Positions 3 through 27,878 of a DNA stretch of 46,045 nt are shown here, piece by piece; within the stretch, counting starts at the first letter, position 1; each line of letters opens with the position of its first letter. The DNA lies in IMG/VR virus record IMGVR_UViG_3300025838_000059, positions 1 through 46,045 of that record; one strand, 5' to 3'. Both the position numbers and the translations under genes were made by a program. The notes below the pieces were generated by a model. That model saw only the letters and a list, made by a program, of their open reading frames with translations, did not search any database and was not told the DNA's origin. Source of the DNA: a virus. Lineage: Duplodnaviria > Caudoviricetes.

Positions 3-272
3 GCTTTTGCAGGAGGAACTCCTGCGGCAGCACAGGTGACTTGCACGACTGCGGGAACGGTGCAGGTTTTGGCAGCGGTCACGACATCATCTGCGGGACG
101 ATTTGTGTCGAACACGTCAGGCTCGACAATTTATCTTGGCCCGTCAGGGGTGAGCAGCACAACAGGTTTTGCTCTGCCATCTGGCGTTACGCTTGATCTT
201 ACGAAGTCTACTTCTGCCTTGTATTGCGCGACATCTACCAGCACTGCGGTTTTGACCACATTGCAGTATTAA
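3..272 (+). CDS. 5'-truncated small Ser/Thr-rich beta protein, probably virion-associated; possible signal-peptidase site (AFA|GGT) at the window edge
   Basis: Frame open from nt 3 (AFAGGTPAAAQVTCTTAG...), TAA at 270-272; two Cys; composition like the neighbouring fibre proteins. Confidence 0.55.
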   Translation, partial: AFAGGTPAAAQVTCTTAGTVQVLAAVTTSSAGRFVSNTSGSTIYLGPSGVSSTTGFALPSGVTLDLTKSTSALYCATSTSTAVLTTLQY

Positions 273-284
273 AAGGTATTCGGA

Positions 285-929
285 ATGATTGCCTTCCAAG
301 AATTTCCCGGTGGATACCGGCTGATAGATGGCAACCAGCTTAATGACGGGCTGGCGTATCCGCTTTGGGCTTATTCGGAAGGTATAACGGCAACTGCAGG
401 TGGGAATGTTAATAATTCCTACCAGATTTCAAATACCATCACGAATGTGACGAGTGCGGCGTCTGGCGCGGGTGTTGTGCTGCCGCAAGCCCTTCCGGGC
501 ATGATTATGATTGTGGCTAATCAATCTGGCCATGACATTACAGTGTTTGCTTCGCATGGATCTTATATCGGGGCGATTGCTGGAAGCGTCGGTATTGTTC
601 AAACTGTCGGTGTTGCCACTTTTTACATTTCAACAGCAGTTGGACAATGGATCGCACTTCCGATTGATATTGCTGGGGCCACAATTAAAGTTACGAAAAA
701 TCAGTTTTTTGATGCGTTGCCGTTGATGCCTACTCCGGCTGATCCGAATTTGTTGGTGCAGGCGATTAACCCGGATTGGGCAAATGCTGCGACGGTGCAA
801 TTTTACACAAGTTCGTATGTTGTGGTCGGAAGTCCACTTTACGCACTTTGTCAGACGACTTATGGTTACACATCTGGGCAGATGGCAACATTGATGGCGA
901 TTGCTGCGACCTTATCGCCGTGGGGATAA
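285..929 (+). CDS. Putative virion structural/decoration protein, two-domain chimera
   Basis: AAAGGT upstream of ATG; N-terminal ~125 aa resembles ORF 18929-19330, C-terminal ~80 aa resembles the repeats at the start of ORF 17631-18923. Confidence 0.65.
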   Translation: MIAFQEFPGGYRLIDGNQLNDGLAYPLWAYSEGITATAGGNVNNSYQISNTITNVTSAASGAGVVLPQALPGMIMIVANQSGHDITVFASHGSYIGAIAGSVGIVQTVGVATFYISTAVGQWIALPIDIAGATIKVTKNQFFDALPLMPTPADPNLLVQAINPDWANAATVQFYTSSYVVVGSPLYALCQTTYGYTSGQMATLMAIAATLSPWG

Positions 930-931: not shown

Positions 932-3900
932 ATGAAGAAATTCTTGGTAGCAGGTGTTAGTCTGATTGCTTTGCAGGCCGCAGTTGCTGCGCCTAACATG
1001 ACTCCGCAATGGGGTTGGGATAGCACTCAGACTTTGCCGACAGGCACTCCGCTCCAATATAAAATTGGCACGACTTGGACGGCTATGCCGTTGTTGGCAC
1101 AGAATAATGTTTGGTCAGGGACACAGTTATTTCAAAATAATGTTGTCGCCCAAAAAACATCTACGGCTGCAAACAGCATTTATTCAGCTATTTATCCCAG
1201 CGTCACCTTTAGCGATACAATTCAAAGTGTTGCAGATATAACTGCAGGAACAACAACGATAAACAATACAGGATTAGCTGCTTATGTTAAGAATGCGTCG
1301 GGAACAAATGGCGCAGGACAAGGAAATGGCGTTGGATTATTTGCTGCAGTTCAATCTGTTGCTAATAATTCTTCAGTTTGGGGTGTAAACACTCTTTGTC
1401 AAGATGCTCCTACAAGAGCCATTGCTTCTTTAACAGGTAATTATTGCATTGGAGCGGAACTGGACTTTAATATCATGTCTCCCGCTACACAAGTTATTGG
1501 TGTAAGTGTTGGTGGCAATTCATTAAGCCAGCCTACAACTTCTAATGCTTTTATAGTTAATTCACTTGGAACAGGAATTAAATGGGGCGGAGGTTTTGTT
1601 AGTCTTAGTGGGACTACAAATACTGGCTTGTCGTTAGGGGCAAAATCCGCTTCTGGGACAAACATTGAAAGTCAAAATTTACAATTAGGATGGTTTGATG
1701 GATCAGCAACGGCACAATTAACTTTGATTAGAATGACAAGTGGATATTTATCGATTACCAATTCTGGAGCTTGGAATGGTGTTGCTCTTGCTGGAAATTT
1801 AACTGTTCAATCGCCTTATTCGGCTATATTTGCTGGCGGGGCGTCTATAACAGGCGCGTATGCGGGCTCCTTTACAAATGGGGTGGCCGTTGATTATGTG
1901 TCTCCATTTGTTCGTTTTAGTGGAGGCGCAGGAGACTCATTTGTTTGGTATAATGGTGGAATTGGCGCAGCGCAATTGATGTTGTTGTCCTCGACAGGCA
2001 ATCTTTTATTGGGCAAAACCTCAACAACAACTGGCTCACTATCTCTAGCAAATGCAAGTTCAGCTTATACAACTACCCTACAAGCTGGCGCAAATACCCC
2101 TGCATCTTGGACTTTGACGCTTCCTCTTGCGGTTCCGGCAGCAAATGGTGCGATCCTGACCGCGACAACTGGTGGCGTCTCATCATGGACCTCAATTTTG
2201 CCGGTAGCAAATGGTGGCACGAACTGCTCTGCGTCTAGCATCACATGCTTTAACAACATCACAGGTTATACCGCGACAGGCGCGACCGGCACTACCAGCA
2301 CCAATTTGGTGTTCTCGACCAGCCCGACCATCACGACACCAACAATTAGCGGGAATGAAACTTATACGGGAACGGCTGGACGTATTCTTGCTGACTTCGA
2401 CAATGCGACGGTCAATAGCCGTAGAGCATTTCAGACAAGCACCACAAACGCTACAACCGGCATTTACGCCCTTCCAAACGGCACATCGACTGCGGCAAGT
2501 TGGCAAGCAACCAACAACTCTGACCCCACAAACGCAAGCAAGATTTTAATCGCTACAAATGCCAGCACAGATGTGCAACTTGTCTCCGGCATCAATGGCA
2601 CAGGCACCTATCTGCCGCTTTCCATCTACACAAGCGGTGGGCAGTCGGCGCAATTTAGCACTACAAAAGGCACATTTACGCTTGGTGTAGCTGGCACAGC
2701 TACCGGCGTGTTGAATATGACCGGCGCTACAAGCGGCACGGCAACTATCACAGCGCAAGCCGCAGCAGGCACACCAACACTAACGCTTCCTAATACTAGC
2801 GGAACACTTGTCTCTACAGCATCAGCGCCACTTTCAATTAGTTCAACAACTGGTGCGATCTCGATTACAGGTGCGGCAGGGCAGATCCTTGCAGGTGCGA
2901 CACCAGCCTTTACAGCGACACCAACGCTCGGTGTGAACGCCACAACGACAGGCCAATTGGGCCTTGCAAATGGTGGTGCAACAGGAGCAACGGTCACTGT
3001 CCAGAACAATGGTGCAACCACAGCCTACAATTTCAACTTGCCTACAACCGTCGGCACGGCGGGATATTTGCTAACGTCGCAGGCCGGTGGCGCTTCCGCC
3101 ATGACTTGGACAAGCCCGACAACAACGGTCAATGGGCAAAGCTGCACACTCGGCTCTACCTGCACGGTCACAGCTGTAGCTTCAAGCATTCCGTTCCCTG
3201 CCACAGTTAGCGGCACAGTTACAAGTGGCGGTATTCCGTATTTCTCCAGCACAACTGCGATGGCATCTTCAGCATTGCTGGCACAATATCAACTTGTTGT
3301 TGGTGGCGGTGCAGGTGCTGCTCCAGCTACATTGGGCGCTACAGGCTCGGCAGGTCAGCATCTTCAAAGTGGAGGTGCTGCGGCCAATCCATCTTGGACA
3401 ACTGCAACATTCCCTGCAACCACAACGGCAGGAACGATCTTAGCATCTGGAACTGCAAATACTGTCACAGCAACTGCAACTCCTACGCTCGGAGTTCAAA
3501 GCACAACGGCAGGCACATTAACACTCGCTAATACTAATGCAGGTGCGTTTCCAACCACTCTTGCTTCTTCAGCTTCTTCAACGGCGGCATGGACATTAAC
3601 ACTTCCTGTTGCCACGCCCGCAGCTAACGGTGCTGTTCTGACTTCAACAACTGGTGGTGTATCGTCTTGGGTCACATCGCTTCCTGTTGCCAATGGTGGC
3701 ACGGCCTGCACGGCGGCAAGCATTACATGCTTTAATAACATTACAGGCTTTACAGCTTCCGGCACTACGGGAACAACTTCCACAAATCTTGTATTTTCGA
3801 CATCGCCCACACTTGTGACTCCAGTGCTTGGTGCAGCTACAGGCACGTCGCTTGCTCTTGGTGGAGCTACAATCGGCACAAACGCGCTCGCAGTTACAGG

Positions 3901-5391: not shown

Positions 5392-5625
5392 ATGAAAAAG
5401 GTAATTATTGCATCTCTGATTTTAGCGTCTTTCCCAGCATTTGCAGAGGATGTAAAACCTGCTGCTCCAGCAGCTGCATCTGCACAACAGCAAGTCGATC
5501 CAAACACCCCAATCACCATCACAGTTGGTGAATTGCAGGCTCTTTTACAGGCCGAGCATGATAAACTTGCAACTGAGGCTGTAGCCCAGAAGATACAGGC
5601 GCAGATTAAAGCCAAAGCAAAATAG
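5392..5625 (+). CDS. Small secreted coiled-coil protein, possible fibre chaperone
   Basis: AAGGA RBS; MKKVIIASLILASFPAFA|E signal peptide; helical C-terminus; directly downstream of the fibre. Confidence 0.65.
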   Translation: MKKVIIASLILASFPAFAEDVKPAAPAAASAQQQVDPNTPITITVGELQALLQAEHDKLATEAVAQKIQAQIKAKAK

Positions 5626-5635: not shown

Positions 5636-6163
5636 ATGGACAGGGCATACTTTTTCAACAGAATTAGACATGCCCTGTTCGGCGGGAAACTTACGGCTGC
5701 GCAAGTAGACGGCATCACGCGAATTCTGGACTACCGTGATAGCAATTATAAAGGCGTGACCGACGACCAGTTGGCCTATATCTTTGCGACGGTGAACTGG
5801 GAAACTGGGCATAAAATGGTGCCGGTCAAGGAGCAAGGGAGCTTACGCTACCTAAAGTCAAAGCCTTACTGGCCCTGGATCGGAATGGGTTTGGTCCAAG
5901 TGACGTGGGAGCGGAATGCAAAGCTCTTTGGGGCCGAAAAGCCCGAAGATTTGCTCGCATGGCCAGTAGCACTTCGCGCTTGTTTTGAAGGCATGACAAA
6001 AGGCCTTTTCACGGGCAAAAAGCTCGCAGATTACATTTCCGCAGGGAAATGCGATTATGTCGGGGCGAGAAGAATTATAAATGGTCAGGACAAGGCAAAT
6101 TTAATCGCGGGGTATGCTACCGCATTTCAATACGCCCTTAAACGTGCGAATAGGGGGTCGTGA
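5636..6163 (+). CDS. Endolysin, glycoside hydrolase family 19-like
   Basis: LAYIFATVNWET, GMGLVQVTWERN, GARRIING motifs; AGGAG RBS. Confidence 0.85.
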   Translation: MDRAYFFNRIRHALFGGKLTAAQVDGITRILDYRDSNYKGVTDDQLAYIFATVNWETGHKMVPVKEQGSLRYLKSKPYWPWIGMGLVQVTWERNAKLFGAEKPEDLLAWPVALRACFEGMTKGLFTGKKLADYISAGKCDYVGARRIINGQDKANLIAGYATAFQYALKRANRGS

Positions 6164-6351
6164 TGGACAAAGATTGGCGAATAGTGGCATTCGGCACGGT
6201 AAGCTGGATGGTGCTTCTCTGCACAGCATTAGGGTTCTTGACAGGATGCTCTCAAATCGAAGGTGATGGGTTTGTGAATGACGGCAAACCGCAGCCTCGA
6301 GTTGTGTGTAAAAAGATAACTCCTTCTCTCACAAGATGCTATAATCGATAG
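6163..6351 (+). CDS. Lipoprotein (o-spanin-like candidate)
   Basis: Hydrophobic stretch then lipobox LTG|C; overlaps the endolysin stop (TGATG). Confidence 0.55.
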   Translation: MDKDWRIVAFGTVSWMVLLCTALGFLTGCSQIEGDGFVNDGKPQPRVVCKKITPSLTRCYNR

Positions 6352-6364
6352 GAAAGGGTGCCAA

Positions 6365-6562
6365 ATGGACGTAGTTATTACATGGCTGATCGCAAGATTA
6401 AAAGAACCGTCCACATGGGCGGGCACAGGCTTAATCGCGTCAGCGGTTCACAATTATATCCCCGGATCAATGGGTGATAACATTATCTCCACGCTGCAGG
6501 GGCTTGGCGGTATTCTTGCGGTGATTTTGGAGGAAAAATCTAAAAAGGTTGCACCAAAATGA
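6365..6562 (+). CDS. Holin-like small membrane protein
   Basis: RLKEPSTWAG motif, two hydrophobic segments, basic C-terminal tail, in lysis cluster. Confidence 0.55.
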   Translation: MDVVITWLIARLKEPSTWAGTGLIASAVHNYIPGSMGDNIISTLQGLGGILAVILEEKSKKVAPK

Positions 6563-9360: not shown

Positions 9361-11592
9361 ATGTCAAATCCTACAAACGAAAACATCGAGAAGTTTCAGA
9401 AAATCTTCAAAAGAGCGCAAGATCGTTTTCGGCGTTGTGAGGATTGGGAGAGCTATGCAAGGCGCATGTTTTTGGATGATTTGAAGTTTGCTAATGCTGA
9501 CGCAGACAACAAATACCAATGGCCGACAAGGATGTGGAACGACAGGCAAAGGGACGAGCGCCCCGCGCTTACGATTAATAAGACCCGTCAGCATAACTTG
9601 AACATTATTAATGATGCCAAGATGAATAAGCCGGGGATTAAGTATCGAGCTGCGGGAAATGGTGCGACCGCAGAGGCTGCAAGAATTTGGGACGGAATTG
9701 CACGGCATATTGAGTATCAGTCAAACGCCCCGGCCCATTATGATGTTGCGACCACTTTTCAAGTCACTGCGGGGCTTGGATTTTTGCGTGTGATTACAGA
9801 CTATGTGTCTGAAGATAGTTTCGACCAAGACATTTACATCACGTCAATTCCAGATCCGATGACGGTCTACATCGACCCGGATGCAAGGGCTCCGGCAAAA
9901 GAAGACATGAGATTTGCTTTCATTTTCGAGGACATGCCGAAAGACGTTTTTGAGAAGAAATATCCGCAGTATGTGAAGTATATGGGGACGGAAGGTCTTG
10001 TTGGTGATCGTGGCTGGCGAGATGATGACCATGTGAGGGTCGCGGAATATTTTGAAGCTGAAGATGTTGAAGATGAATTGCTGATGTTTGACGGCCCGGA
10101 CGGACAACCGGCTACAATTCTTGCGTCAGATTTGCGCAAGGTCGATCCAAAAAGCGCAGTTTTTATTGACCCAATGACAAGAAAGCGCAGCGTTCAAAAG
10201 CGAGTTATCCATTACCACTTTATCATCGGGACTCATATTGTTGAGTCTGAGGAAAAAGAGTGGATTGGAAAGACCATCCCGATCATTCCAGTGGTTGGGG
10301 AAGAAATCATTATTGAAGGAAGAATGGATCGTAAAGGCCACACACGGGCCATGAAAGATCCGCAGAGGATGTATAACTACTGGGCTTCGAGTGCAGTTGA
10401 GTATGGTGCCTTGCAGTCAAAGACTCCTTGGATTGTGGGTGTTGAAACGGTCGAGGGCTTTGAAGAATACTGGGCGACCGCAAACCGTCAGAACCACGCT
10501 TATTTGCCGTATAAATCTGTTGGTGATGATGGCAAACCTTTGCCTCCTCCCGCAAGAGTTGAGCCCCCCGTTCCTTCGCCTGTTGCCTTGAAGGGAATGG
10601 AAGTCGCTGCAATGGAAATGCAGATGGTTTCCGGGCAATACGAAAATCAGATGGGGCAACAAGGGAATGAACGAACTGGAAAGGCGATTGCTGAACGTCA
10701 GCGTCAAGGTGATCGTGCTACTTACCATTTCATTGATAACCTTGCGATTGCGATCCGGCAGGTGGGCAAGATCATTCTGGATCTGGTGCCGAAACTTTAC
10801 GACACAAACAGGATCGTGATGATCTTGGCTGAGAATGGTGAAAGTTTAGAGGTCAAGCTCGATCCACAACTCAAACAGGCTCACATGCTTGAGTTGAATG
10901 AAAATAATGAGGTCATTACAAGACTTTTGAACCCTGCTATCGGGCAGTATGAAGTGCAGGCAGATGTCGGGCCGGGATATGCGACACGCCGTGAGGAGGC
11001 GTTTAACGCACTTACCCTCATCCTCACGCAGTCCCCAGCGCTCACCAATATCATCGGTGACATCATGTTTAGAGCTGGCGACTTCCCGATGGCAGAGGAA
11101 GCAGCCGAGAGACTGAAGCGCATGGTCCCGCCGCAGGCGCTTGGTCAGGGTCCGACGCAAAACGAGCAAATGCTTGGAATGCAAGTGCAGCAATTGCAGG
11201 ATGCGCTCAAGGCTACGATGGACGAGTTGGCGAAGGAAAAAGGCAAGACGCAAGCACGTCTCGAAAAGCGCGAAGTCGATGTCTACGACGCGATCACAAA
11301 ACGTATCGATGTGGTTGGCAAGCAAGGGCTTTCTGCGCTACAATTGGCAAAATTGCAAGACGATGTTGTTCGGGAAAGCGAAGACGTTCCGATCAGCGAT
11401 ACATACGAAGGTCACAAGGAGCAAGGGTCAACTCCGGGGGCGGAATATGCCTCAGAGCGCGATCAACAAATGCCTGCTCCCCTTGAGGATCATGAAATGC
11501 CGGAAGGGGCTTTTAGAGGCCCAGATGGTCACGTTTACGGCCCGCACCCGGAAATGCCGGGGACGATAGCACGGATTACACGGAGAGGTTAA
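9361..11592 (+). CDS. Portal protein (P22 gp1-like)
   Basis: 743 aa after TerL; RPALTINK, KDPQRMYNYW, GPGYATRREEA motifs. Confidence 0.9.
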   Translation: MSNPTNENIEKFQKIFKRAQDRFRRCEDWESYARRMFLDDLKFANADADNKYQWPTRMWNDRQRDERPALTINKTRQHNLNIINDAKMNKPGIKYRAAGNGATAEAARIWDGIARHIEYQSNAPAHYDVATTFQVTAGLGFLRVITDYVSEDSFDQDIYITSIPDPMTVYIDPDARAPAKEDMRFAFIFEDMPKDVFEKKYPQYVKYMGTEGLVGDRGWRDDDHVRVAEYFEAEDVEDELLMFDGPDGQPATILASDLRKVDPKSAVFIDPMTRKRSVQKRVIHYHFIIGTHIVESEEKEWIGKTIPIIPVVGEEIIIEGRMDRKGHTRAMKDPQRMYNYWASSAVEYGALQSKTPWIVGVETVEGFEEYWATANRQNHAYLPYKSVGDDGKPLPPPARVEPPVPSPVALKGMEVAAMEMQMVSGQYENQMGQQGNERTGKAIAERQRQGDRATYHFIDNLAIAIRQVGKIILDLVPKLYDTNRIVMILAENGESLEVKLDPQLKQAHMLELNENNEVITRLLNPAIGQYEVQADVGPGYATRREEAFNALTLILTQSPALTNIIGDIMFRAGDFPMAEEAAERLKRMVPPQALGQGPTQNEQMLGMQVQQLQDALKATMDELAKEKGKTQARLEKREVDVYDAITKRIDVVGKQGLSALQLAKLQDDVVRESEDVPISDTYEGHKEQGSTPGAEYASERDQQMPAPLEDHEMPEGAFRGPDGHVYGPHPEMPGTIARITRRG

Positions 11593-13020: not shown

Positions 13021-13030
13021 TGAGGGTGAG

Positions 13031-14903: not shown

Positions 14904-16118
14904 ATGTCAAATACAATTTTAACAATTAACATGATTACCCGTGAGGCCGTGCGCCTCTGGGTAAACACCAACTCCTTCCTGCAGCACATCGATACGCAGT
15001 ATGATGACCAGTTTGCTGTGACCGGCGCGAAAATCGGTCAGAGCCTCCGCATCCGTCTGCCTAACGATTACACGGTTAGAAATGGCCCTGTAGCGCAGAT
15101 CCAAGATACGGCGGAAACCAGCACCACGCTGACCCTCGCCACCCAAAAAGGCGTTGACGTTTCGTTTAACAGCGTTGAACGCACGATGTCTTTGGACGAC
15201 TATTCCAAACGCATCCTTGCGCCAGCTGTAAACAACCTCGTCGGCGCTGTCGCTGCAGACGTGATGTCAGGTGTTGAAGGCGGCGTTTCCAACCTTGTTG
15301 GTAACTTTGACGCTGCTGGTAACTTGCTCCGTCCGACGCTTGAGACGTTCTTGAATGCAAAAGCACTCTTGAGCTTACGCTCTGCGCCTACGGACTCCCG
15401 CAAGTTCATCCTCGATCCTGTCACGATGGCTCGCACGGTCCAGAACCTTTCTGGCCTGTTGAACCCAGCCACGGAAATCTCTGAGCAGTATCGCAAGGGT
15501 GAAGTTTATAACGCGATTGGCTTCGACTGGTTCGAAGACCAGACGGTTATCAAACACACGACCGGCGCATACACGGGCACGATGACGGTTTCTGGTGCAA
15601 ACCAGACCGGCACGACCATCACCACAAACGCTCTTGGTGGCCCGCTTGCACAAGGCGACATCATCACGTTTGCTGGCGTGAGCGCCGTCAACCGCATCAC
15701 CAAAGTATCAGTTGGTTCGTTGCAGCAGTTCGTTGTAACGGCAGCAGCTGCTGCGGGCGCGACAAGCATCTCCATCTATCCTGCGATTGTTCCACCATCT
15801 GGCGGTTCAACGGTTCAGTATCAGACGGTTACGGCTTCTCCTGCTAACGGTGCAGCGATTGTGACCCTGACGTTGGCAAGCAGCGTTTATCGCAAGAACC
15901 TTGCATTCATTCCAGATGCAGTCACGATGGCGACGGCGGATTTGGAATTGCCAAAGAACATGCAGGAAACGGCAAGAGAGCGTATGGACGGCGTTTCGAT
16001 GCGTATGGTGACAGGTTTTGACATTAAGTCGGACCAGTTCATCACACGTCTTGATGTGTTGTATGGTTATGTCTGGGTTCGTCCTGAGTGGGCGGTTGTT
16101 GTCGCAGACATCATCTAA
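14904..16118 (+). CDS. Major capsid protein (P22 gp5 coat family)
   Basis: MSNTILTINMITREA, KIGQSLRIRLP, RLDVLYG motifs. Confidence 0.92.
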   Translation: MSNTILTINMITREAVRLWVNTNSFLQHIDTQYDDQFAVTGAKIGQSLRIRLPNDYTVRNGPVAQIQDTAETSTTLTLATQKGVDVSFNSVERTMSLDDYSKRILAPAVNNLVGAVAADVMSGVEGGVSNLVGNFDAAGNLLRPTLETFLNAKALLSLRSAPTDSRKFILDPVTMARTVQNLSGLLNPATEISEQYRKGEVYNAIGFDWFEDQTVIKHTTGAYTGTMTVSGANQTGTTITTNALGGPLAQGDIITFAGVSAVNRITKVSVGSLQQFVVTAAAAAGATSISIYPAIVPPSGGSTVQYQTVTASPANGAAIVTLTLASSVYRKNLAFIPDAVTMATADLELPKNMQETARERMDGVSMRMVTGFDIKSDQFITRLDVLYGYVWVRPEWAVVVADII

Positions 16119-16127
16119 TCACTAAAA

Positions 16128-16153: not shown

Positions 16154-16173
16154 CACTCGTAAGGAGCAAGTAA

Positions 16174-16518: not shown

Positions 16519-16519
16519 C

Positions 16520-17608
16520 ATGATCGCAGGTATCAAAAACTTTTTAACTTTGCTGGTTGCATTGTTGTGGGTAAATGGTGCCTGCGCTCAAACCTATAAC
16601 CAGATGACTTGGGGATTTACCTTACCATCTGGCTCGCCTTACAATTTTGGGGCGAATATTCAAGGGAACTGGTATAATTTAGGAACTGTAAGTTCTGCGG
16701 GTGCTTGGACATTAACTCCTAGTATAATTAATGTAACAAATGCTGGTGCTTTTGATAACACACAGCAATATGATTATGTTGTTTCAAATGTCGGAAATAT
16801 AAATATAGGCCAATTCTTTTCATCATTTTGGGGCGGTTATCATGCTACTGAAGCTCTTGTAGGGGCAGTTATAGAGCCAACAACTGCTACAAATCTTCAA
16901 TCAAATGCAGTTTCTGGATATTCAGATTGTGCAAAAGATTGGACTGGAATTTCACCTAGAGGTGGCTGCGTTTCCGGGTTTTTTGTGGCTAGAGCCAGCG
17001 GAAATGGGGCAAATTTATTTGGTATAAATACTTGGAATGGTGATGCAGGGATTACAAATGTTACTGAGCAAAATGAGTTTGATTTTGACTCAAGAAATGC
17101 TTCGACTATTGTATCGGGATCAGTCGCGTTTCTTTCTGGCACTATACAACCTTCGTCAGCAGTAGCTTGGACGTGTAACGCCACGACAGGATTAAAGTGG
17201 GGCGCTTGTTTATTTTCAAGAGACGGACAAGTTTATCGTGGAGCGTATTTTGGAACTAGAGCAGTTGGTAACGGCGTAGATAGTCAAGAAATAGCGTTTA
17301 ATGGTATTGATGCTGGTGGGGTTAATCGAACAGCCCTTATTTTTGGTTCGCAATATGGAAATATAAATTTACGTTCTGGGCAAAATAATTTTCCGGTTGT
17401 TATTCAAGATTATAATAATGGAAACGGAAGTAACATTGCTTACTTTGGGGCAACTGCTTCTTTTATAAGTTCTCCATTAACCGTAAATGGGACCGCTATA
17501 TTTAATAGTGGAATAAATGTTGGAGCAGCTGTCGGTGTATCTTGTTCGGCAGGCACAGTAAATACATCAACGATGGTAATAACAAACGGGATAGTGACAC
17601 ATTGCTGA
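16520..17608 (+). CDS. AT-rich beta-rich spike/adhesin-like protein with signal peptide; paralogous to N-terminus of the giant fibre
   Basis: MIAGIKNFLTLLVALLWVNGACA|Q; blocks shared with ORF 932; Cys pairs. Confidence 0.65.
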   Translation: MIAGIKNFLTLLVALLWVNGACAQTYNQMTWGFTLPSGSPYNFGANIQGNWYNLGTVSSAGAWTLTPSIINVTNAGAFDNTQQYDYVVSNVGNINIGQFFSSFWGGYHATEALVGAVIEPTTATNLQSNAVSGYSDCAKDWTGISPRGGCVSGFFVARASGNGANLFGINTWNGDAGITNVTEQNEFDFDSRNASTIVSGSVAFLSGTIQPSSAVAWTCNATTGLKWGACLFSRDGQVYRGAYFGTRAVGNGVDSQEIAFNGIDAGGVNRTALIFGSQYGNINLRSGQNNFPVVIQDYNNGNGSNIAYFGATASFISSPLTVNGTAIFNSGINVGAAVGVSCSAGTVNTSTMVITNGIVTHC

Positions 17609-17630
17609 CACTCAACACAGGTCTTAACCC

Positions 17631-18923
17631 ATGACCGCAACCGTATCACGCGAGCAATTCTTCTCCGCAATAGCGGATATGGCGAATTTGGAAACATTTT
17701 CGCAGGCTGTTTTGGCCAATCCAAATACGACCGCGTGGAACCAGTTTAATTCCGCGACGTGCATTTCGTCCACAGATGATATTGCCCTGTTGGTGCGAAC
17801 CACGTTCAACTGGACGCAGCTCCAACTTGACTCGCTTTTCACCCTCGCGGCGACACTTCCGGGTGGAGATGTAGCTTGTGGCGCGACGGTTGTGCCATCG
17901 ACTGTGGCGGCGGTTTCAAGGCAGCAGTTCTTTGCGGCCATTGCCATACAGGCCAATGTGGAATTGCTGTCGCAGGCTGTAACGGCAAACAAAAACGACA
18001 CGCTTTGGATACAGTTTAATTCTGCGGTTTGTATTTCGATCACAGATCAATTGGCGCTTTTGGCTCAGACCACATTTGGCTGGACTTCGGCCCAGTTGGT
18101 TTCGTGCTTCTCGCTTGCAGCTACCCTCCCCGGCGGCAATGCCTCTTGCTCTGTCCAGCCGGTCGATCCTGTTTATCCGACACCTTTCGGCGGGGCGACA
18201 TTTACGGCGCTCGATATTATCAATCTTGCTTATAAAGACGCTGGCGTGTTGGGTGTTGGTCAGTCGCTTCTGGCAGAAGATGTTAATGACGCCTTGACGC
18301 GATTGAATATGATGATTGCTCAGTGGCGGATGAAACGCTGGTTGGTATGGCACCTTGTGGACAAGAGTGTGGTGTCAACTGGGGCCCAAAGCTATACGGT
18401 CGGCCCCGGCGGTGACATAAATGTAGCAGCGCGCCCGGACAAACTCGAAAGCGCGTTTTTCAGAATGCTGGCGGGCGGAAGCGGCACACAGGCGGTGGAC
18501 TATCCGCTCCAGATCCTTTTCTCAATGGAGGATTATGCAAGAATTACGCTCAAGCAATTAGTGTCATTCTCGCAATGCATATTCTATGACTCCGCATGGC
18601 CTTTGGGGCGCATTTATCCTTGGCCGATCCCACAAGCAAACCTTTACGAAGTCCATATCTTGCTCAAAGATGTGTTGACTGAATTCAACAATCTAACAAG
18701 CCCTTTCATATTTCCGCCCGAATACCTTGCAGCTATCCACTACAATCTTGTAGTTCGCACCCGCGCTGCATACCGACTTCCACCAGATCCGACATATGAA
18801 GGGCTGGCGGCAGATGCGCTCCAGACGATCCGTTCTGCGAATGCACAAATACCTAGCCTTGTGATGCCGGATAATCTGGTCCGTCCGAGTGTCTACAACA
18901 TTTACAGCGACCAAACGAGGTAA
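17631..18923 (+). CDS. Head-tail adaptor (P22 gp4-like) with two extra N-terminal ~80-aa repeats
   Basis: TALDIINLAYKDAGVLGVGQ...DALTRLNMMIAQW resembles gp4 N-terminus; position between coat and gp10. Confidence 0.75.
   Translation: MTATVSREQFFSAIADMANLETFSQAVLANPNTTAWNQFNSATCISSTDDIALLVRTTFNWTQLQLDSLFTLAATLPGGDVACGATVVPSTVAAVSRQQFFAAIAIQANVELLSQAVTANKNDTLWIQFNSAVCISITDQLALLAQTTFGWTSAQLVSCFSLAATLPGGNASCSVQPVDPVYPTPFGGATFTALDIINLAYKDAGVLGVGQSLLAEDVNDALTRLNMMIAQWRMKRWLVWHLVDKSVVSTGAQSYTVGPGGDINVAARPDKLESAFFRMLAGGSGTQAVDYPLQILFSMEDYARITLKQLVSFSQCIFYDSAWPLGRIYPWPIPQANLYEVHILLKDVLTEFNNLTSPFIFPPEYLAAIHYNLVVRTRAAYRLPPDPTYEGLAADALQTIRSANAQIPSLVMPDNLVRPSVYNIYSDQTR
17637..18140 (+). repeat. Tandem ~80-aa repeat in the gp4-like gene
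   Basis: VSRxQFFxAIA...SQAVxAN...WxQFNSAxCISxTD...TTFxWT...FxLAATLPGG twice. Confidence 0.9.
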
Positions 18924-18928
18924 CTCAA

Positions 18929-19330: not shown

Positions 19331-19343
19331 GGGATGTAGTGAA

Positions 19344-20759
19344 GTGGCTCAGATCCAACTTGTTCAAGGTGCTTATGAAGCGCGCTCGGTAATAGCGAAC
19401 GCGCAGAGGTGCATCAATCTGTATCCAGAACAGAACACGAAGGATGCTGAAGTTCCTTACACGCACTACTGCACTCCGGGGCTGACGCTTCTCGCGCAAG
19501 GAATTGTGGCCGAGGTGCGTCAGCTTTACACAGCGTCCAACGGGCTGCTTTTTGCGGTCATCGGGAACATTGTTTATTACGTGCCAGATAATTTTGTGCT
19601 GCAACAATTAGGCAGCATCACTTCTCAATCTGGTCTTGTAAGTATGTATGATAATAAGTTCTCGCTTATTATTTTAGATGGCTCGACGCAGGGATGGAGT
19701 GTTAATCTTACATCGCTTGAGTTTAATGTTTTTAATCCGACCAATTTTGTTGGCGGAAATCAAATTCGCTACATTGACACGTTTTTAGTCTCGTCAACTC
19801 AAAACGCCAACATTCAATCGAGCAACTCGAACGAAACAACTTACCCCGACCTTGGCGTTGCCACGATGTCTGGAGACGCTGACCGACTCCAAATCATTGA
19901 CGTTGTGCATAAGGAAATGTGGAGTTTTGGAAGACGCACAACGGAAGTCTGGACGAATGTTGGATCATATCCGTTTCCGTTCCAGCCCATTCCCGGTGTG
20001 TTTTTGCAGCACGGGATCGCAGCTTTGCGTTCGCTGGCGAAGTGGGGGTTGAATATCTTCTGGCTTTCGGAAGACAACAATGGCCAAGCTCTCATCATGC
20101 AAGGCACAGCTTACAAAGCTGACATTGTTTCTACCCCCGCCATTGCAGATGCTATCGGAAAATATGATAAGATTTCTGACGCTATCGGATTTTGTTATCA
20201 GCAAGGTTCACATATTTTCTACTTCTTAACCTTCCCGTCAGCAAACGCGACGTGGTGTTATGATCTGTCAACCCAACTCTGGCATGAGCGTGGGTATTTA
20301 GATGAAAACGGAAACCTTGTAAGACATCGTGCGAACTGCGTAGCTCATGCCTATAACCGCACAATTGTTGGCGATTGGCAAAACGGTAATCTCTATACTT
20401 TTGATCTCAACAATTACACAGACAACGGAAATCCGATCTTACGTCTTCGCTCCTTCCCACATCTTGTGTCTGACGGAGATCGCGTAAGCTATACAAACTT
20501 TATGGCTGACATCGAGGTCGGCACAGACCTTGATCCTTCCGAAGACCCCCAAATCACCCTTTGCTGGAGTAATGATCGCGGGGTGAGTTTTGGAAATGGC
20601 TTACAACAATCGTTAGGTAAATCCGGCGAATATCGTGCAGTTCCCTCTTGGAGCAGACTGGGATTTGCGAGAGATCGTGTGTTTGAATTGTCTTGGACTG
20701 CTCCTTGTCCTGCAGCCTTGAACGGCGCGTGGATACAAGTTGAGAAGATGGAGACATAA
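19344..20759 (+). CDS. Tail hub / packaged-DNA stabilization protein (P22 gp10-like)
   Basis: GTG start; QRCINLYPE, YFLTFPSANATWCYD, WSNDRG, LGFARDRVFE; size and synteny. Confidence 0.85.
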   Translation: MAQIQLVQGAYEARSVIANAQRCINLYPEQNTKDAEVPYTHYCTPGLTLLAQGIVAEVRQLYTASNGLLFAVIGNIVYYVPDNFVLQQLGSITSQSGLVSMYDNKFSLIILDGSTQGWSVNLTSLEFNVFNPTNFVGGNQIRYIDTFLVSSTQNANIQSSNSNETTYPDLGVATMSGDADRLQIIDVVHKEMWSFGRRTTEVWTNVGSYPFPFQPIPGVFLQHGIAALRSLAKWGLNIFWLSEDNNGQALIMQGTAYKADIVSTPAIADAIGKYDKISDAIGFCYQQGSHIFYFLTFPSANATWCYDLSTQLWHERGYLDENGNLVRHRANCVAHAYNRTIVGDWQNGNLYTFDLNNYTDNGNPILRLRSFPHLVSDGDRVSYTNFMADIEVGTDLDPSEDPQITLCWSNDRGVSFGNGLQQSLGKSGEYRAVPSWSRLGFARDRVFELSWTAPCPAALNGAWIQVEKMET

Positions 20760-20760
20760 C

Positions 20761-21561
20761 GTGCCAATTTTAAAAAGCGTTCCTAACTCTACAACACAGC
20801 TAATTGATGAAAATGGAAAGCCGACACGGCAATTCCAATTGTTAATGGCCGCTTTGGCTGAGCCCGGAAACATCACGTCTTATGATATTGCTGATGGTGC
20901 TATTATCTCAGTAAAACTCGCCAACGGATCGGTTTCGACTGACAAACTTCCAGATAATGTTATTACTGCGACAAAAATTTCCGACAATTCAATCACAACT
21001 TCAAAGATTTTGGCCAATGCCATCACGTCAAATTTGATTGCAGCTGGCGCGATTGTTACGGATAAAATTTATGCGAACTCAATCGTTACTCAGCACATCA
21101 GTATCGGGGCGGTTACGACTCCAAACATCGCATTAAATTCTGTTTCGTATGCTGGCGGGCAGTCGTCAAGTGGTTCTTCTGCGACGATCAATCTTGTGCC
21201 AGTAGAGAACTCGATTGTCTGTATTCTTGGGACGTATGATGGAACGGCTGCAACAAGTTCCGGCACCATCACAATTTCTGTCAACGGAACGCCCATCGAC
21301 TCCGGCACAATTCCGGGCATTTACTTTACATCGATGGGTTTGTCTCCGGGCCCTAACCCCGTCTACGGCGGCGCGTTTTATGGTGATACGTCCAACCATA
21401 CCCAAGTTTATAGCTACGCCCCTGTAACGACTGTCGCGGTTTATCCTCGAACACTTCAAACCAATTATACAGTTCAAAATACCGACACTGCTTTGGCCAT
21501 AACCTGTTCTACAAATGTAGGCGGGCCGGTTAGCGTGTTGGCTTGGGAGCTTTCAAGATGA
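20761..21561 (+). CDS. Tail needle/short fibre protein with 10-residue repeats
   Basis: GTG at 20761 after GGAG; LIDENGKPTRQF N-terminus; about nine decapeptide repeats (ITATKISDNS, ITTSKILANA...); position of P22 gp26. Confidence 0.6.
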   Translation: MPILKSVPNSTTQLIDENGKPTRQFQLLMAALAEPGNITSYDIADGAIISVKLANGSVSTDKLPDNVITATKISDNSITTSKILANAITSNLIAAGAIVTDKIYANSIVTQHISIGAVTTPNIALNSVSYAGGQSSSGSSATINLVPVENSIVCILGTYDGTAATSSGTITISVNGTPIDSGTIPGIYFTSMGLSPGPNPVYGGAFYGDTSNHTQVYSYAPVTTVAVYPRTLQTNYTVQNTDTALAITCSTNVGGPVSVLAWELSR

Positions 21562-21848: not shown

Positions 21849-21891
21849 GTATTATGATGTGTAGGCCGGATTTGACATTTAGGAGATTAAT

Positions 21892-22791: not shown

Positions 22792-22801
22792 GGAGCCTCA
22801 G

Positions 22802-24346: not shown

Positions 24347-26748
24347 TGTCAGCTCTCGACGACTACTGGAAAAAACACCATGAGGAAGGGGTGGACACTT
24401 CTTCAATACCAGCCCCTGCTCCTTCTGCATCTGCCCCCATGAGTGCCTTAGATGCTTATTGGGCTGAAAAGCATGAAGGCTCGACGGCAACAGAGCGCCA
24501 AGCCCAACAGGCGAAGGCCAAAGGTGAGCCATTAGGCAATGTCAATATTTCGTATTTAGGGGAATATGGGCGTCCGAAAGCGCAAGGTCATCTTAGCCCT
24601 GCACAACAATATCAGCACCTTTTGAGCCTTGGAGCCTCTCCTAATGAGGCACACTTACTAACATCTGCCGCTGCATCCGAAAGCGAGTTAAATCCTGCCG
24701 CACATCACGACCAGAACACAGGCTACGGACTGTATGGCCATCGATTAGAGCGCCTCGACGCTATGCGGAAGTTTGCTGGCGCGGAATATCCTTCTTGGCA
24801 ACAACAAAATGCTTTCGCCTTACAGGAGTTGCGCTCAAGGCCAGAATACAACCTTGTGCAAAATGCTAAAAACGCCCGTGACCTTGCTATCGCACAGATG
24901 CACTTTGAACGTCCGGCAGGATATTCCCCAGAGAACCCATCCGCTGGTCACAACTTCGCAGGGCGTCTTACAACCTTAAACCAATTCGCAGGGCTTCGCG
25001 GAGAGGATCGTATTCCCCGTGGTGAACTTGCGCCAGAATGGGGAGTTGGTCATTCCCTTGCGACCGGCGCGACGTTAGGTTTTGCTCCACAAATCCAAGC
25101 CGCTTTTGAGGCTGGTTATAATCCGTTTGTTGGTGGCAGACATGCCATGAACCAAGAGCGTTACCAACAACGTCTTGCGGAACTCCAAGAACAACGTCGC
25201 CTTTACAATTTAGAAAATCCACTTTCTGGCTATGGCGCGGAAGGTTTGGGCTCTGTTGCCACAACCGCGATCCCATTGGCAAGAGCTGGGCAGGTTTTAG
25301 GTCAGGTCGCTGAACGGGTTGCCCCGATGGTTGCCCCTGCGGTCGCACCTTATGTTCCACAAGCAATGAGATTTTTAGGCGGTGAGGCTGGTCAAGCGAT
25401 CCCGCAAGTGGCTGAACAAATGCCAGGACTCGCCGGGGCGGCTACAAGGCTTGGGTCTGCCGGTGCGCAGGGCGCAATTCAAGGTGTGACGCAAACAGGC
25501 CTTGAGGCTGCAAGTCGTGCGATGGGTGGATCACTCGGTGATACAGAAACCCCGTTGATGGAACAATTCGGAACAAGCGCGCTTTTAGGCGGAACGCTTG
25601 GCCCTGCACTTTCGAAGTTGGTTTCACCACGGGCTGGTGGAGCGTTAGCCCCGGAATGGGAAGCCGGTCCACGTCAAGTCGGACAACAGGCGCTTGAAGA
25701 ATTCAATATTCCTGTCTATCCCGGCCAATTTGCAAAGGGCGAGGCTGCAGAATTCTTTCGACAAACTGCGCCACAATCACTTCTTGACCAGCAAAACAAA
25801 AGGTTCTCGGAAGAAGTTTCGAAGATCATCGGATCAAAAGACCTTACCCCTGCGGAAGTTGAAAAAGCTGCACAGGATGTTGGAAGTAAAATGAGCGCAG
25901 TTGCGGCAGGTGTGGCCCCGCTTCGTGCAACTCAAAAAGCTGCGACAGACCTTTACAATGTTTATACAGACTCCTTTACACTTCGTGATGATAACATTCG
26001 GAAAATTGTTCAAGGGATCATTCACGACATTGGAACTGATCTTGCAACTGGACAATTAAATGGAAAAGTATTTCAGAAATACACTCAGAAAGGCGGCATT
26101 ATTGATCGCCAACTTTCCGCCGCATCAAACTCCATCAAGAAGTTTTATGGCGGTGAACTTCGAAATGTGATGTTTGATCTTCTTGCAGCAAACGATCCAA
26201 GGGCTGCAAAAGAATGGGCGGGCTTACGTTCACGCTACCGCGACATTATTAATGTCGATCCACACACCACCACCAGCGGGATTGTTGACCCAAGAGCTAT
26301 TGCGAATGCTGTTGGAAAGAAAGGCTCGACTTCACGTCTTAAAGACCTTGCACCTGTAGGAGAATTCTTGCGCGGCACTGAGCCTTCCGGCGCGGCCACA
26401 CCATTTTCTCGTGGAGGTGGCGGAATGAGCCCCGGAGAAATCTGGCAAACCCTTAAACAAAATTGGCGTCCATTGACATTTGGTGGATCTGCCGCATCGG
26501 TGTTTGCTCCGGGCCTTTCTGACATTGCTGCTGCCGGTGGCCCTTTAATCCAATACGCCCTTCCAACTGCACTTGCAGGCGCAGCCACAACTTTTGCGGC
26601 GCGAGATTTGGCGACAAAACAACTTCTAAAAAGTCCCGCAGTTCGTAAGCAAGTTTTTGCCGGGACTTTTGGTAAAGAAAAGCGTAGAGCTGCGCGGAAT
26701 ATTGTGAGGGGCGCGGTTTCACTTAATCCATTGGCAGGGGAAGAATGA
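24346..26748 (+). CDS. DNA ejection protein (gp16-like position) with phage tail-lysozyme domain
   Basis: ESELNPAA...GYGLYGH...QQNAFALQEL...FERP lysozyme-2-like signature; Gly/Ala-rich hydrophobic segments. Confidence 0.7.
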   Translation: MSALDDYWKKHHEEGVDTSSIPAPAPSASAPMSALDAYWAEKHEGSTATERQAQQAKAKGEPLGNVNISYLGEYGRPKAQGHLSPAQQYQHLLSLGASPNEAHLLTSAAASESELNPAAHHDQNTGYGLYGHRLERLDAMRKFAGAEYPSWQQQNAFALQELRSRPEYNLVQNAKNARDLAIAQMHFERPAGYSPENPSAGHNFAGRLTTLNQFAGLRGEDRIPRGELAPEWGVGHSLATGATLGFAPQIQAAFEAGYNPFVGGRHAMNQERYQQRLAELQEQRRLYNLENPLSGYGAEGLGSVATTAIPLARAGQVLGQVAERVAPMVAPAVAPYVPQAMRFLGGEAGQAIPQVAEQMPGLAGAATRLGSAGAQGAIQGVTQTGLEAASRAMGGSLGDTETPLMEQFGTSALLGGTLGPALSKLVSPRAGGALAPEWEAGPRQVGQQALEEFNIPVYPGQFAKGEAAEFFRQTAPQSLLDQQNKRFSEEVSKIIGSKDLTPAEVEKAAQDVGSKMSAVAAGVAPLRATQKAATDLYNVYTDSFTLRDDNIRKIVQGIIHDIGTDLATGQLNGKVFQKYTQKGGIIDRQLSAASNSIKKFYGGELRNVMFDLLAANDPRAAKEWAGLRSRYRDIINVDPHTTTSGIVDPRAIANAVGKKGSTSRLKDLAPVGEFLRGTEPSGAATPFSRGGGGMSPGEIWQTLKQNWRPLTFGGSAASVFAPGLSDIAAAGGPLIQYALPTALAGAATTFAARDLATKQLLKSPAVRKQVFAGTFGKEKRRAARNIVRGAVSLNPLAGEE

Positions 26749-27878
26749 TGAAAAGAACAACAGCAGGGCTTCTTGCCTTTTTACTTTCAAGTTCAAGTCT
26801 GCACTCTGCTACGCTTTTGCCTAACGGCCAACAACAATTCGTTGATGGAAACGGTAAGCCTTATGCTGGTGGCACGGTTACATTTTATTCAAACTATCCT
26901 GCCTGCACGGTTTTGAAAAATACTTGGTCGAATTCTGGCCAGACCGTTTTAAACACAAATCCTGTGGTTTTGGACTCCGCTGGTCGTGCGACGATTTTTG
27001 GGTCAGGAACTTACTGCCAAGTTCTAAAAGACCTTAACGGCAACACGATCTGGACAAAAGAAACAGGCGATGCTGCAAGCACCTCGACGTTAGGCTGGGG
27101 CTCGGTAAGTGGCGGCACGGCGAATGCGCAGACCGTAACGGTTTCGGGCTTTGCCAGCACCAACGGCCAAACCTTTTACTTTGTCGCAGGGGCAACGAAC
27201 TCCGGGGCGTTGACGCTTTCTGTTAATGGCGGCTCACCAATTTCTGTCGTGAAGCCAACGGCTGGCGGCACAGCGATCTTGACAGGAAGTGAAGTTGTTT
27301 CTGGAAACGTCATCGGTGTGACGTATTATTCCACGACAAGTCAATTTCAGCTTGTCACCAACAACATAGCTGTTTCAACACCTCCGGGTCAGGTTGCGTC
27401 CTATGCAATGGGAAGTTGCCCTGCCGGTTGGCTTGCCGCAAACGGTGATCCTATTTCACGATCTACTTATGCAGTTTTGTTTTCGAACATCGGAACGGCT
27501 TGGGGAAATGGTGATGGCTCGACGACGTTCAATCTCCCCGATCTTCGCGGTATGTTTGTTCGTGGCACTGGCACAAACGGGACATATCCTACAGCCATCG
27601 GCGGAACAATCGGCACAACTGGGTATCAAGCTGACACGTATTTAAACCATAACCATCCTGCAACATCGACCGACTCCGGCCATACGCACGGTTATACCGC
27701 TACATCATCAGCATCGGGTCCGGCAGCGGGCGGTTTAGGTGGCCAAACACCTTCACAATATTCCGCAACAACCGGCTCAGGCACTGCCAACATCACCACA
27801 ACAGTTGCGGACTCAACAACGGGCGGCACAGAAACAAGACCGAAGAACTATTCAGTCTTGTATTGCATTAAATATTAG
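26745..27878 (+). CDS. Tail fibre: signal peptide + podophage particle-attachment domain + tail collar domain
   Basis: QFVDGNGKPYAGG...NTNPVVLDSAGRA; PAGWLAANG...YAVLFSNIGTAWGNGDGSTTFNLPDLRGMFVRG; ETRPKNYSVLYCIKY. Confidence 0.85.
   Translation: MMKRTTAGLLAFLLSSSSLHSATLLPNGQQQFVDGNGKPYAGGTVTFYSNYPACTVLKNTWSNSGQTVLNTNPVVLDSAGRATIFGSGTYCQVLKDLNGNTIWTKETGDAASTSTLGWGSVSGGTANAQTVTVSGFASTNGQTFYFVAGATNSGALTLSVNGGSPISVVKPTAGGTAILTGSEVVSGNVIGVTYYSTTSQFQLVTNNIAVSTPPGQVASYAMGSCPAGWLAANGDPISRSTYAVLFSNIGTAWGNGDGSTTFNLPDLRGMFVRGTGTNGTYPTAIGGTIGTTGYQADTYLNHNHPATSTDSGHTHGYTATSSASGPAAGGLGGQTPSQYSATTGSGTANITTTVADSTTGGTETRPKNYSVLYCIKY

Follow-up and report, generated by a model that had tools for sequence, protein, structure and literature searches.

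A P22-type podophage whose tail fibres carry secretion-type leaders and paired cysteines

Three large fibre-type proteins of a P22-type podophage, among them the one predicted to dock on the virion, begin with leaders of the Sec type and have even numbers of cysteines in their mature parts. From these sequence features we propose that the fibres are probably exported by Sec, folded with disulfides introduced by the host, and docked on heads at or after lysis. With a little less confidence, we lean toward a broader reading: that such phages form a widespread class of tailed phages with two-compartment virions, in which heads and necks would be made in the cytoplasm, the host-recognition gear would be made in the periplasm by way of Sec and disulfide formation, and particles would be armed at lysis, the switch having occurred repeatedly in phages of Alphaproteobacteria and Acidobacteriota.

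Genes and leaders of the window

The window, i.e., the whole 46,045-nucleotide stretch analysed (IMG/VR record IMGVR_UViG_3300025838_000059), holds a partial P22-type podophage genome, as judged from its portal/coat/gp4/gp10 set (Pfam and PHROG). PF16510 and PF11651 scored above the cut-off, and the ejection genes gave a phrog_598 match. No tRNA genes were found in the window, a promoter and terminator scan of 14700-28200 gave signals at shuffle level, and no close prophage was found when the collar fibre, coat and endolysin were searched against named genomes. Proteins are named by start position in the following list.

3..272, plus strand: edge ORF, the 3' part (residues 47-135) of a 135-aa protein with 4 mature Cys
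285..929, plus strand: leaderless; related to 18929 in its N-terminal part and ending in a helical "SRQ" domain of ~80 aa
932..5329, plus strand: giant Ser/Thr-rich fibre-like protein 932 (1465 aa); leader 932-988, 12 mature Cys
5392..5625, plus strand: small leader-bearing protein 5392, partner of giant fibres; leader 5392-5445, no Cys
5636..6562, plus strand: lysis genes (phrog_181, E 2.7e-20; one lipobox call), comprising the next three entries
5636-6163, plus strand: endolysin, leaderless
6163-6351, plus strand: lipobox protein
6365-6562, plus strand: probable holin
9361..11592, plus strand: P22-like portal, leaderless (PF16510, E 1.6e-150)
14904..16118, plus strand: P22-like coat, leaderless, no Cys (PF11651, E 4.1e-38)
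16520..17608, plus strand: spike-slot protein 16520 (362 aa); leader 16520-16588, 6 mature Cys
17631..18923, plus strand: gp4-like head-tail adaptor, leaderless (phrog_637); two N-terminal SRQ domains
19344..20759, plus strand: gp10-like tail hub, leaderless (phrog_578, E 1.1e-96)
20761..21561, plus strand: fibre/needle-like protein 20761, leaderless; tail-fibre PHROG matches over a repeat
26745..27878, plus strand: predicted virion-docking tail fibre (26745/26748, the collar fibre); leader 26748-26807, head-binding domain ~26808-27071, collar domain, T4 gp12-like tip

Leaders were called with a rule-based scan for n-, h- and c-regions, not with SignalP; the rule was written after the leaders had been seen, and a few minus-strand starts are approximate. 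Leaders that pass it have the anatomy expected for Sec and signal peptidase I: a basic n-region, an uncharged hydrophobic core, a small residue at -1 and a small or aliphatic one at -3. Four of 57 window genes were called (exactly 932, 5392, 16520 and 26748), relative to a background of 6 of 1879 internal segments, and a purine-rich, ribosome-binding-like stretch lies 5' of each of the four starts. These results bear out an earlier note on this DNA, which had read leaders on the same four proteins and none on the core virion proteins: the portal, coat, gp4-like, gp10-like and 20761 proteins are all leaderless. The closely spaced Cys pairs that it listed for the fibres are likewise present as written. 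Its assignment of AFA|G as the cleavage site of the truncated edge ORF did not hold, but the full gene does have a leader. In L168, a contig 100% identical across the first 9 kb of the window, the complete edge gene (L168 9070-9477) has AFA as internal residues 47-49 and a real leader of 24 residues, upstream of the window, which is also present in L169, L170 and L171. The edge-ORF protein possibly decorates the particle. Just ahead of the edge gene, at L168 8535-9020, a sixth gene also has a leader.

The fibre leaders are rich in Ala, Gly, Ser and Thr, and the core of the 26748 leader is moderately hydrophobic (mean 2.3 vs 2.7-3.1 in the other three). For 26748, the rule placed cleavage at residue 15, and alignment with leaderless forms placed the mature start at residue 21. 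No Tat-type RRxF motif was found in the six leaders, and no lipobox Cys at +1 was called among the four window leader genes; a Cys in the 16520 leader is missing in L066. In-frame Met codons immediately follow the leader in 932 and 16520, and are not kept in L169 or L176, while in 26748 no ATG or GTG separates the leader from the domain.

The docking fibre, its relatives and the other leader-bearing proteins

The N-terminal domain of 26748 matched the Pam1 (7eeq, E 5e-10) and Pan3 (9vyg, E 1e-9) tailspikes by profile, and by fold it matched Pan3 (E 1e-4) and both Pam1 and P22 (E 1e-3 to 4e-3). According to their entry titles, solved P22 structures have this domain on gp4/gp10. The C-terminal half matched T4 gp12 (1ocy, 1pdi; E 3e-15), including its His-x-His motifs, as well as PF07484. 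The chain of 26748 does not start at the head-binding domain; the 20-residue leader comes first. The gene occupies the slot of leaderless tailspikes, after the ejection proteins, and there is one head-binding gene per genome, with a leader in G006, G009, G015 and G024 and with none in G010-G012. Because 26748 is the only head-binding-domain protein in the window genome, as are its counterparts in all four near-complete leader-bearing relatives, the exported form appears to replace the virion spike, and docking on particles, which the earlier note had proposed, is the favoured fate, with presence in virions predicted from this gene content.

The earlier note had also suggested looking for the leader in homologues, where its anatomy proved to be kept: it precedes the docking-fibre domain in 119 of the 120 closest homologues with a visible anchor start. 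Among these 119, K or R occurs within the first 7 residues of all, the core is uncharged in 116, and G, S or A at -1 and L or A at -3 are each found in 117. Sequence identity was 0.42 in the leader vs 0.79 in the 20 residues that begin the mature chain; pN/pS of the leader, measured in 13 loci, was 0.53 vs 0.17, with the reading frame kept and purine-rich stretches 5' of the leader start. The leaders diverge in sequence while the signal-peptide anatomy stays, and many unrelated leaders stand ahead of the same domain.

A leader-free profile gave a two-peaked picture among its best 150 matches, with 66 starting at the domain, 72 carrying an extension of 17-37 aa, and 12 others. The leader rule was passed by 71 of these 72 extension-bearing homologues; the 0 of 66 calls among leaderless representatives arise by construction and were not counted as evidence. 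Leaderless relatives begin exactly at the predicted mature-chain start, e.g., the P26218 fibre, which starts M-ATLLP, the predicted mature start of 26748. All seven GenBank relatives examined are leaderless, six of them isolates (P26218, PAE2, PBR31, X14, BA3 and H6/1), and the annotated start of phiAX1_450 lies downstream of what appears to be its leader. A tree of 164 head-binding domains, built without rows of <250 aa, left 80 of 155 forks open, and the best tree has at least 13 leader changes whose direction is not readable; a single clade holds most of the leader-bearing representatives, and supported branches provide only three independent contrasts, too few for a statistical test. Not every such phage need export these proteins, and some sets are mixed: L036/L178 has a giant fibre with a leader alongside a docking fibre without one, and the 16520 slot of close relatives holds leaderless spikes (coat 97% in L063, 87% in L075 and L077). 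Two complete leaderless spikes in that slot have 8 Cys each.

Mature Cys counts are even in all four leader-bearing window proteins (932, 12; 5392, 0; 16520, 6; 26748, 4), and those of 26748 pair as 53/90 and 224/373. Among homologues, even counts were found in 68 of 72 leader-bearing proteins vs 26 of the 57 leaderless ones with any Cys, a contrast that kinship inflates; median gaps were 17 within and 107 between pairs in leader-bearing proteins, and 31 and 26 in leaderless ones. The head-binding pair is complete in 101 of 119 homologues, missing in 18 and never single, and the pair joined by co-occurrence between the collar start and the C-terminal strand is complete in 114 of 120, missing in 5 and single in 1. 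Cys also occur in leaderless proteins (six in the gp4-like and seven in the gp10-like protein), and pairs are not exclusive to proteins with leaders. Even, locally paired and co-varying Cys are the pattern of disulfide-bonded exported proteins, and the sequences of the leader-bearing fibres conform to it.

The N-terminal module of 932 is shared with 16520 (24% identity over ~270 aa, E 2e-7), and 932 itself has no Pfam or PHROG match; four of its six other homologues have leaders and even Cys. In 16520, a conserved ~45-aa N-terminal module precedes a variable body; all 11 of its other homologues pass the leader rule, 10 have even Cys and two carry beta-helix Pfam domains, and leaderless syntenic counterparts match tailspike/depolymerase families. 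No solid family match was found for 16520 in Pfam or PHROG, the ESM Atlas gave weak fibre-like rows under the bar, and a Pfam match to Legionella_OMP (E 8e-4) was below the cut-off and was rejected. A 5392 homologue with its leader follows a long fibre frame in nine of nine loci, and 5392 is a putative, candidate fibre chaperone. It gave no Pfam, PHROG or ESM Atlas match, and none in G006, G009, G015 or G024, near-complete relatives that carry the leader-bearing docking fibre. The gp4-like protein, with its SRQ domains, is a candidate for docking the 932/16520 module or assisting its assembly. The SRQ domain had no Pfam or solved-structure match (best Z 4.7), which does not in itself establish a new fold, and the 18929 family heads leaderless long fibres in relatives.

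Proposed route and its alternatives

Conserved leaders and paired cysteines suggest that the host-recognition parts fold outside the cytoplasm. The comparative evidence, namely leader anatomy, leaderless start points and even, paired Cys, gives good support to the earlier proposal that the receptor-binding proteins are exported and disulfide paired, and from it we would predict the following order. Heads and necks would be built in the cytoplasm, the head, neck and endolysin genes being leaderless, while the fibres would (i) be translocated by Sec and cleaved by signal peptidase I, and (ii) be oxidised and folded into trimers in the periplasm. We assign this second step to host enzymes because no phage-encoded disulfide oxidase was found among 29 plus-strand and 26 minus-strand window proteins and the nine proteins of the L168 region missing from the window. 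The parts would (iii) meet once holin lesions have opened the inner membrane, or else in the lysate, and (iv) the head-binding trimer would bind the gp4/gp10 neck, as in P22. Finally, (v) 932 and 16520 might conceivably attach through their shared N-terminal module, perhaps to SRQ domains.

It is unlikely, but worth weighing, that the proteins are exported but work apart from the virion, serving as receptor blockers, decoys, adhesins or matrix-degrading enzymes that the infected cell displays or releases. The MAT proteins of Bdellovibrio are signal-peptide-bearing, phage-like trimeric fibres described on cells (PMC10769870), the phiAX1 structural region has a leader-bearing gene annotated as a glucanotransferase, and 932 and 16520 have no recognised virion anchor. 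However, the head-binding domain of the docking fibre is strongly conserved and encoded by a sole gene in the tailspike slot, and virions would be left with empty spike sites. This alternative fits 932, 5392 and the two small upstream proteins better than it fits 26748.

Rather improbable is a dual routing, in which a cytoplasmic fraction, arising from an internal start or from precursor that slips past a saturated Sec pathway, arms virions in the ordinary manner while the exported fraction does something else. The Met codons after the 932 and 16520 leaders would permit it, and close relatives get by with leaderless versions of that module, but these codons are not conserved, 26748 offers no such start, and the strict pairing of Cys points to folding of all copies in an oxidising compartment. 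Less credible still is that leaders whose cleavage is delayed or absent tether the fibres to the inner membrane as signal anchors or signal-arrest-release domains, timing their release or pre-positioning them for lysis. Signal-arrest-release domains are Ala/Gly/Ser/Thr-rich and weakly hydrophobic, as are the fibre leaders in composition and the collar-fibre core in hydrophobicity; against this, 117 of 119 homologues retain the residues at -1 and -3, and leaderless forms naturally begin at the same boundary. It is very unlikely that heads pass or bud through the envelope with no lysis straight away, gathering exported parts. Such passage would account for the split between compartments, and filamentous phages are assembled at the membrane from exported coat proteins, but the window phage has a leaderless endolysin adjoined by membrane and lipobox genes, and no secretin or extrusion ATPase match was found among the proteins searched (Pfam, PHROG). 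That we have mistaken chance hydrophobic N-termini or wrongly called starts for leaders is scarcely credible, even though fibres are rich in small apolar residues and the rule was tuned on this case, given the low background, the many unrelated leaders preceding one domain, and the frame and purine tract kept in 13 loci.

Significance and comparison with known systems

The usual view is that tailed-phage particles are complete before lysis, while still in the cytoplasm. A secretion leader on a single-copy, virion-docking fibre implies that the last assembly step would join parts from opposite sides of the inner membrane. If export followed by docking is the true course, Sec, signal peptidase and Dsb enzymes would count among the host factors that infectivity requires, defence might act on them, and the evolution of paired cysteines in such fibres would be explained. 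If virions are indeed made in two compartments, intracellular particles would be non-infectious, released spikes might arm heads across cells, and fibres could take up disulfide-locked modules from secreted proteins. A further warning concerns gene callers and expression constructs, which may get such N-termini wrong, as the annotation of phiAX1_450 illustrates. A prophage of Methylobacterium persicinum NBRC 103628 (NZ_BPQX01000021.1), with its coat gene at 106078-107280 and one head-binding fibre gene starting at 116906, offers a system for testing the proposal in a host that is cultured and non-pathogenic.

The predicted leader on a single-copy head-binding tail fibre appears to be a variant of the known P22-type tailspike for which we found no precedent in tailed phages; the literature searched held no description of a secretion-leader route for their fibres, and the main text of the Tunturi paper makes no mention of a signal peptide. 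The "processed esterase" of phi24B was considered as a precedent and set aside, as the portion of its description available to us reports no signal-peptide processing. Spanins, antiholins and SAR or signal-peptide endolysins are also phage proteins that use host Sec and Dsb, and the gp40 esterase of PBR31 has a signal peptide and resembles tail-associated hydrolases, its authors suggesting, in the part of the report we drew on, a role in lysis (PMC10975493). All of these serve lysis or its control, however, and none is a head-binding tailspike.

Among virion proteins, pIII and pVIII of filamentous phages have cleavable Sec leaders, and pIII is a disulfide-bonded receptor-binding protein. Inoviruses, however, are assembled at the membrane and extruded, whereas the window phage is tailed, packages its genome in a capsid and encodes an endolysin. 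The MAT fibres of Bdellovibrio bacteriovorus are described, in the sections of the source used here, as phage-like trimers with a signal peptide and swappable tips; they serve as adhesins of the cell, and a ~130-aa domain of their own follows the signal peptide, with an S74 chaperone in most members (PMC10769870). No S74 match was found among the window proteins by Pfam search. Unlike MAT genes, the window fibres lie in a phage morphogenesis operon, and one has a virion-docking domain.

T4 gp12 has a collar and receptor-binding tip like the C-terminal half of 26748, but in 26748 the tip is fused to a P22-type anchor, with a leader and a co-occurring collar/C-terminal Cys pair. That anchor resembles, by profile and fold, the head-binding domains of P22 gp9 and of the Pam1 and Pan3 tailspikes, and the native P22 tailspike has no disulfides according to the excerpted account (PMC3357383). 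The window phage has the portal/coat/gp4/gp10 set and the post-ejection gene slot in common with P22-type phages and the leaderless isolates; unlike their tailspikes, 26748 adds a secretion-type leader of ~20 residues and paired Cys.

Leader-bearing genes of the window

The record, a single linear virus sequence of 46,045 bases with an estimated completeness of 82%, carries on its plus strand lysis genes and a P22-type morphogenesis set (terminase, portal PF16510, scaffold, coat PF11651, gp4-like adaptor, gp10-like hub, and ejection genes), and on its minus strand a family A polymerase, a helicase, and nucleases. Among isolates, its coat is closest to those of Pseudomonas phage PAE2 (57%) and of Acetobacter phage phiAX1 (42%).

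932-5329: giant Ser/Thr-rich fibre-like gene (932)
5392-5625: small leader-bearing gene (5392)
11593-13660: two genes without a family match between portal and scaffold, 475 and about 209 aa
16520-17608: gene in the spike slot (16520)
26745-27878: predicted docking tail fibre (26748)
29117-32462: split family A polymerase, with a uracil-DNA-glycosylase-like plus exonuclease gene apart from the polymerase gene, and one HNH and one DUF7220 gene between the two
32892-34328: DNA methylase fused to a ParB-N domain
42376-42798: early gene with a HIRAN domain
44792-45208: early gene for a pyrimidine-dimer glycosylase

The earlier note had described signal-peptide-like leaders on 932, 5392, 16520, and 26748 (there 26745), and both these and the Cys pairs it listed were borne out. 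Leaders were called by our own simple rule, not SignalP; as it was written with these leaders in view, the homologue tests weigh more than its selection of exactly these four among 57 window genes (background, 6 of 1879 internal segments). The edge ORF, a cut gene at 3-272, fared differently: the proposed cleavage site AFA|G falls at residues 47-49 of a 135-aa gene in L168, a contig identical over the window's first 9 kb, and the true 24-residue leader lies outside the window. Directly upstream, L168 has a further leader-bearing gene of about 160 aa, so that the phage has six, a lipobox protein apart; no twin-arginine motif was found in any of the six leaders. The exported-type protein of ~160 aa at L168 8535-9020 has a C-terminal Cys-paired module in common with the tips of five 16520 homologues. 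The mature N-terminus of 5392 (window 5446-5490) is rich in Ala and Pro and includes a Ser, while Ser/Thr make up 19-31% of the exported-type fibres; both resemble periplasmic O-glycosylation targets and may be such targets.

A predicted docking fibre behind a leader

In profile comparisons, the first mature domain of 26748 matched the head-binding domains of the tailspikes from the cyanophages Pam1 (E 5e-10) and Pan3 (E 1e-9). The predicted model (mean pLDDT 63, about 80 in the head-binding domain) matched the solved fold of Pan3 (E 1e-4) and, more weakly, those of Pam1 and P22 (E 1e-3 to 4e-3), and the C-terminal half matches T4 gp12, suggesting that 26748 is a virion-docking fibre preceded by a leader. 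The start of this anchor domain was visible in 119 of the 120 best homologues, a list biased by a query that included the leader; among these 119, a leader of at least 18 residues was present in 116, a small residue at -1 in 117, and Leu or Ala at -3 in 117. Identity was 0.42 in the leader and 0.79 just after it.

Of the viral loci (46 of 57 examined), 13 were leader-bearing, 19 started directly at the anchor, and 14 had a collar-only match or were cut. Purine-rich stretches precede the leader start codon in 13 loci, for which pN/pS (uncorrected, near saturation) was 0.53 in the leader versus 0.17 in the mature start. The leader was absent from all seven phages checked in GenBank, of which six are isolates, and the P26218 fibre begins M-ATLLP, the predicted mature start of 26748. 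A leader-free head-binding profile built from 10 leader-clade and 6 leaderless rows matched 29,563 clusters; in the best 150, 66 begin at the domain, 72 carry a 17-37 aa extension (71 passing our rule), and 12 are other (8 of them over-long gene calls that begin ahead of a leader), a split that is not a prevalence because the seed mix sets its proportions. Leaders were rarer in named bacterial genomes (75 of 76 loci examined): four passed the rule and two more were leader-like by eye. Five of these six come from Acidobacteriota and one from Methylobacterium persicinum. At the M. persicinum locus, a P22 coat lies 10 kb upstream, and the single head-binding gene is followed by a second leader-bearing gene. 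In a P22-coat locus from Edaphobacter (L244 7929-16247), the ejection genes are followed by a series of Cys-rich genes with leaders. In two phages with leaderless fibres (G010, gene end 38859; G012, gene end 28722), one small, conserved protein of 77-79 aa nevertheless bears a leader.

The window contains a single head-binding gene. The same holds for four relatives that are 97-100% complete (G006, G009, and G015, coat identity 86-87%; G024, 53%), where the gene is leader-bearing in all four, and for three complete, more distant phages, where it is leaderless in all three. We infer that the exported-type docking fibre is a replacement of the leaderless one, not an additional copy. Further, G006, G009, and G015 retain the ~160-aa leader-bearing protein and lack 932, 5392, and a leader-bearing 16520, suggesting that the constant exported core consists of the docking fibre and the ~160-aa protein, the others being mobile modules.

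Associated fibre genes and the SRQ domain

932 and 16520 are related across their first ~270 residues, including a ~45-aa module after the leader; neither has a family match, and their putative 'fibre' and 'spike' labels are based on their composition, the bodies of homologues, and the gene slot. Leaders were found in four of six other 932 homologues and, by our rule, in 11 of 11 other 16520 homologues, whose bodies are variable and 10 of which have even Cys. In the close relatives L063, L075, and L077, the 16520 slot holds a leaderless version of the module followed by tailspike or depolymerase bodies, which confirms the predicted role of the slot and shows its putative export to be optional; L036/L178 has the opposite mix, a leader-bearing giant fibre with a leaderless docking fibre. 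In all nine loci out of nine, 5392 comes after a long fibre frame, so it is probably a partner of giant fibres; the chaperone role proposed earlier is a guess.

SRQ, a helical domain of ~80 aa, is fused in two copies to gp4 (window 17631-18149) and in one to the leaderless gene 285 (687-923). Of 32 records, 7 have the domain, and each of them is one of the 8 holding the 932/16520 module, with profiles built partly from those records; four partial loci (L073, L082, L087, L103) have SRQ without an adjoining module gene. Its model (pLDDT 92) is similar to phage proteins that are uncharacterised, including one with the name tail-fibre-assembly-like, and a dock is a candidate role. Relatives also carry a free-standing SRQ domain after the coat region, and SRQ copies have paired Cys despite having no leader. 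The leaderless 285 family occurs twice in the window (285-929 and 18929-19330) and, in relatives without an exported giant fibre, forms the start of long fibres that are leaderless and 750-1100 aa in length (for instance, L170 823-4107); it is possibly a head-fibre anchor.

In phiAX1 (L139 25419-28313, LC644973), gp4 and gp10 are separated by two leader-bearing genes. The second carries the annotation cycloisomaltooligosaccharide glucanotransferase and has an in-frame leader upstream of the annotated start. Micrographs published for this strain show long-tailed particles (PMC8566455), which does not fit its P22-type genome.

Cysteines and the predicted route

Mature Cys counts were even (2 to 24) in 68 of 72 leader-bearing representatives and in 35 of 66 leaderless ones (26 of 57 without zero-Cys rows), a contrast that Fisher's p of 3e-10 overstates, as most leader-bearing rows form one clade and only three independent contrasts are supported. 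Median gaps within and between consecutive Cys pairs were 17 and 107 in leader-bearing proteins, versus 31 and 26 in leaderless ones. The head-binding-domain pair was complete in 101 of 119 homologues, absent from 18, and single in none; the collar pair was complete in 114 of 120, absent from five, and single in one. Counting against a leader-specific Cys argument, leaderless gp4 has six Cys and leaderless gp10 seven. The eight Cys of the native P22 tailspike are reported to stay reduced (PMC3357383), in contrast to what is predicted for the leader-bearing fibres, and Cys by themselves are thus no proof.

In the most economical reading, which we consider probable, the fibres would be exported via Sec and cleaved, undergo host-driven disulfide folding, and dock on heads once lysis opens the inner membrane, or in the lysate. 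Among the phage's proteins examined, none was of Dsb type. P22 tailspikes are added last, and their addition works in vitro. An endolysin without a leader reaches the wall only through holin lesions; that of the window is leaderless, so such lesions would be required.

That the exported proteins function off the virion is unlikely for a set that includes a predicted docking fibre. Dual routing is improbable, and membrane tethering, with cleavage-type residues kept at -1 and -3, slightly more so. Non-lytic exit, in a phage with lysis genes, is very improbable, and an artefact is barely conceivable; judged from sequence, the leader is a real, conserved, and selected feature. No description of Sec-exported virion fibres of tailed phages was found in the literature searched, in which an earlier mention may have been missed. 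The parts belong to known families; their predicted routing appears to be undescribed and new for P22-type tail assembly.
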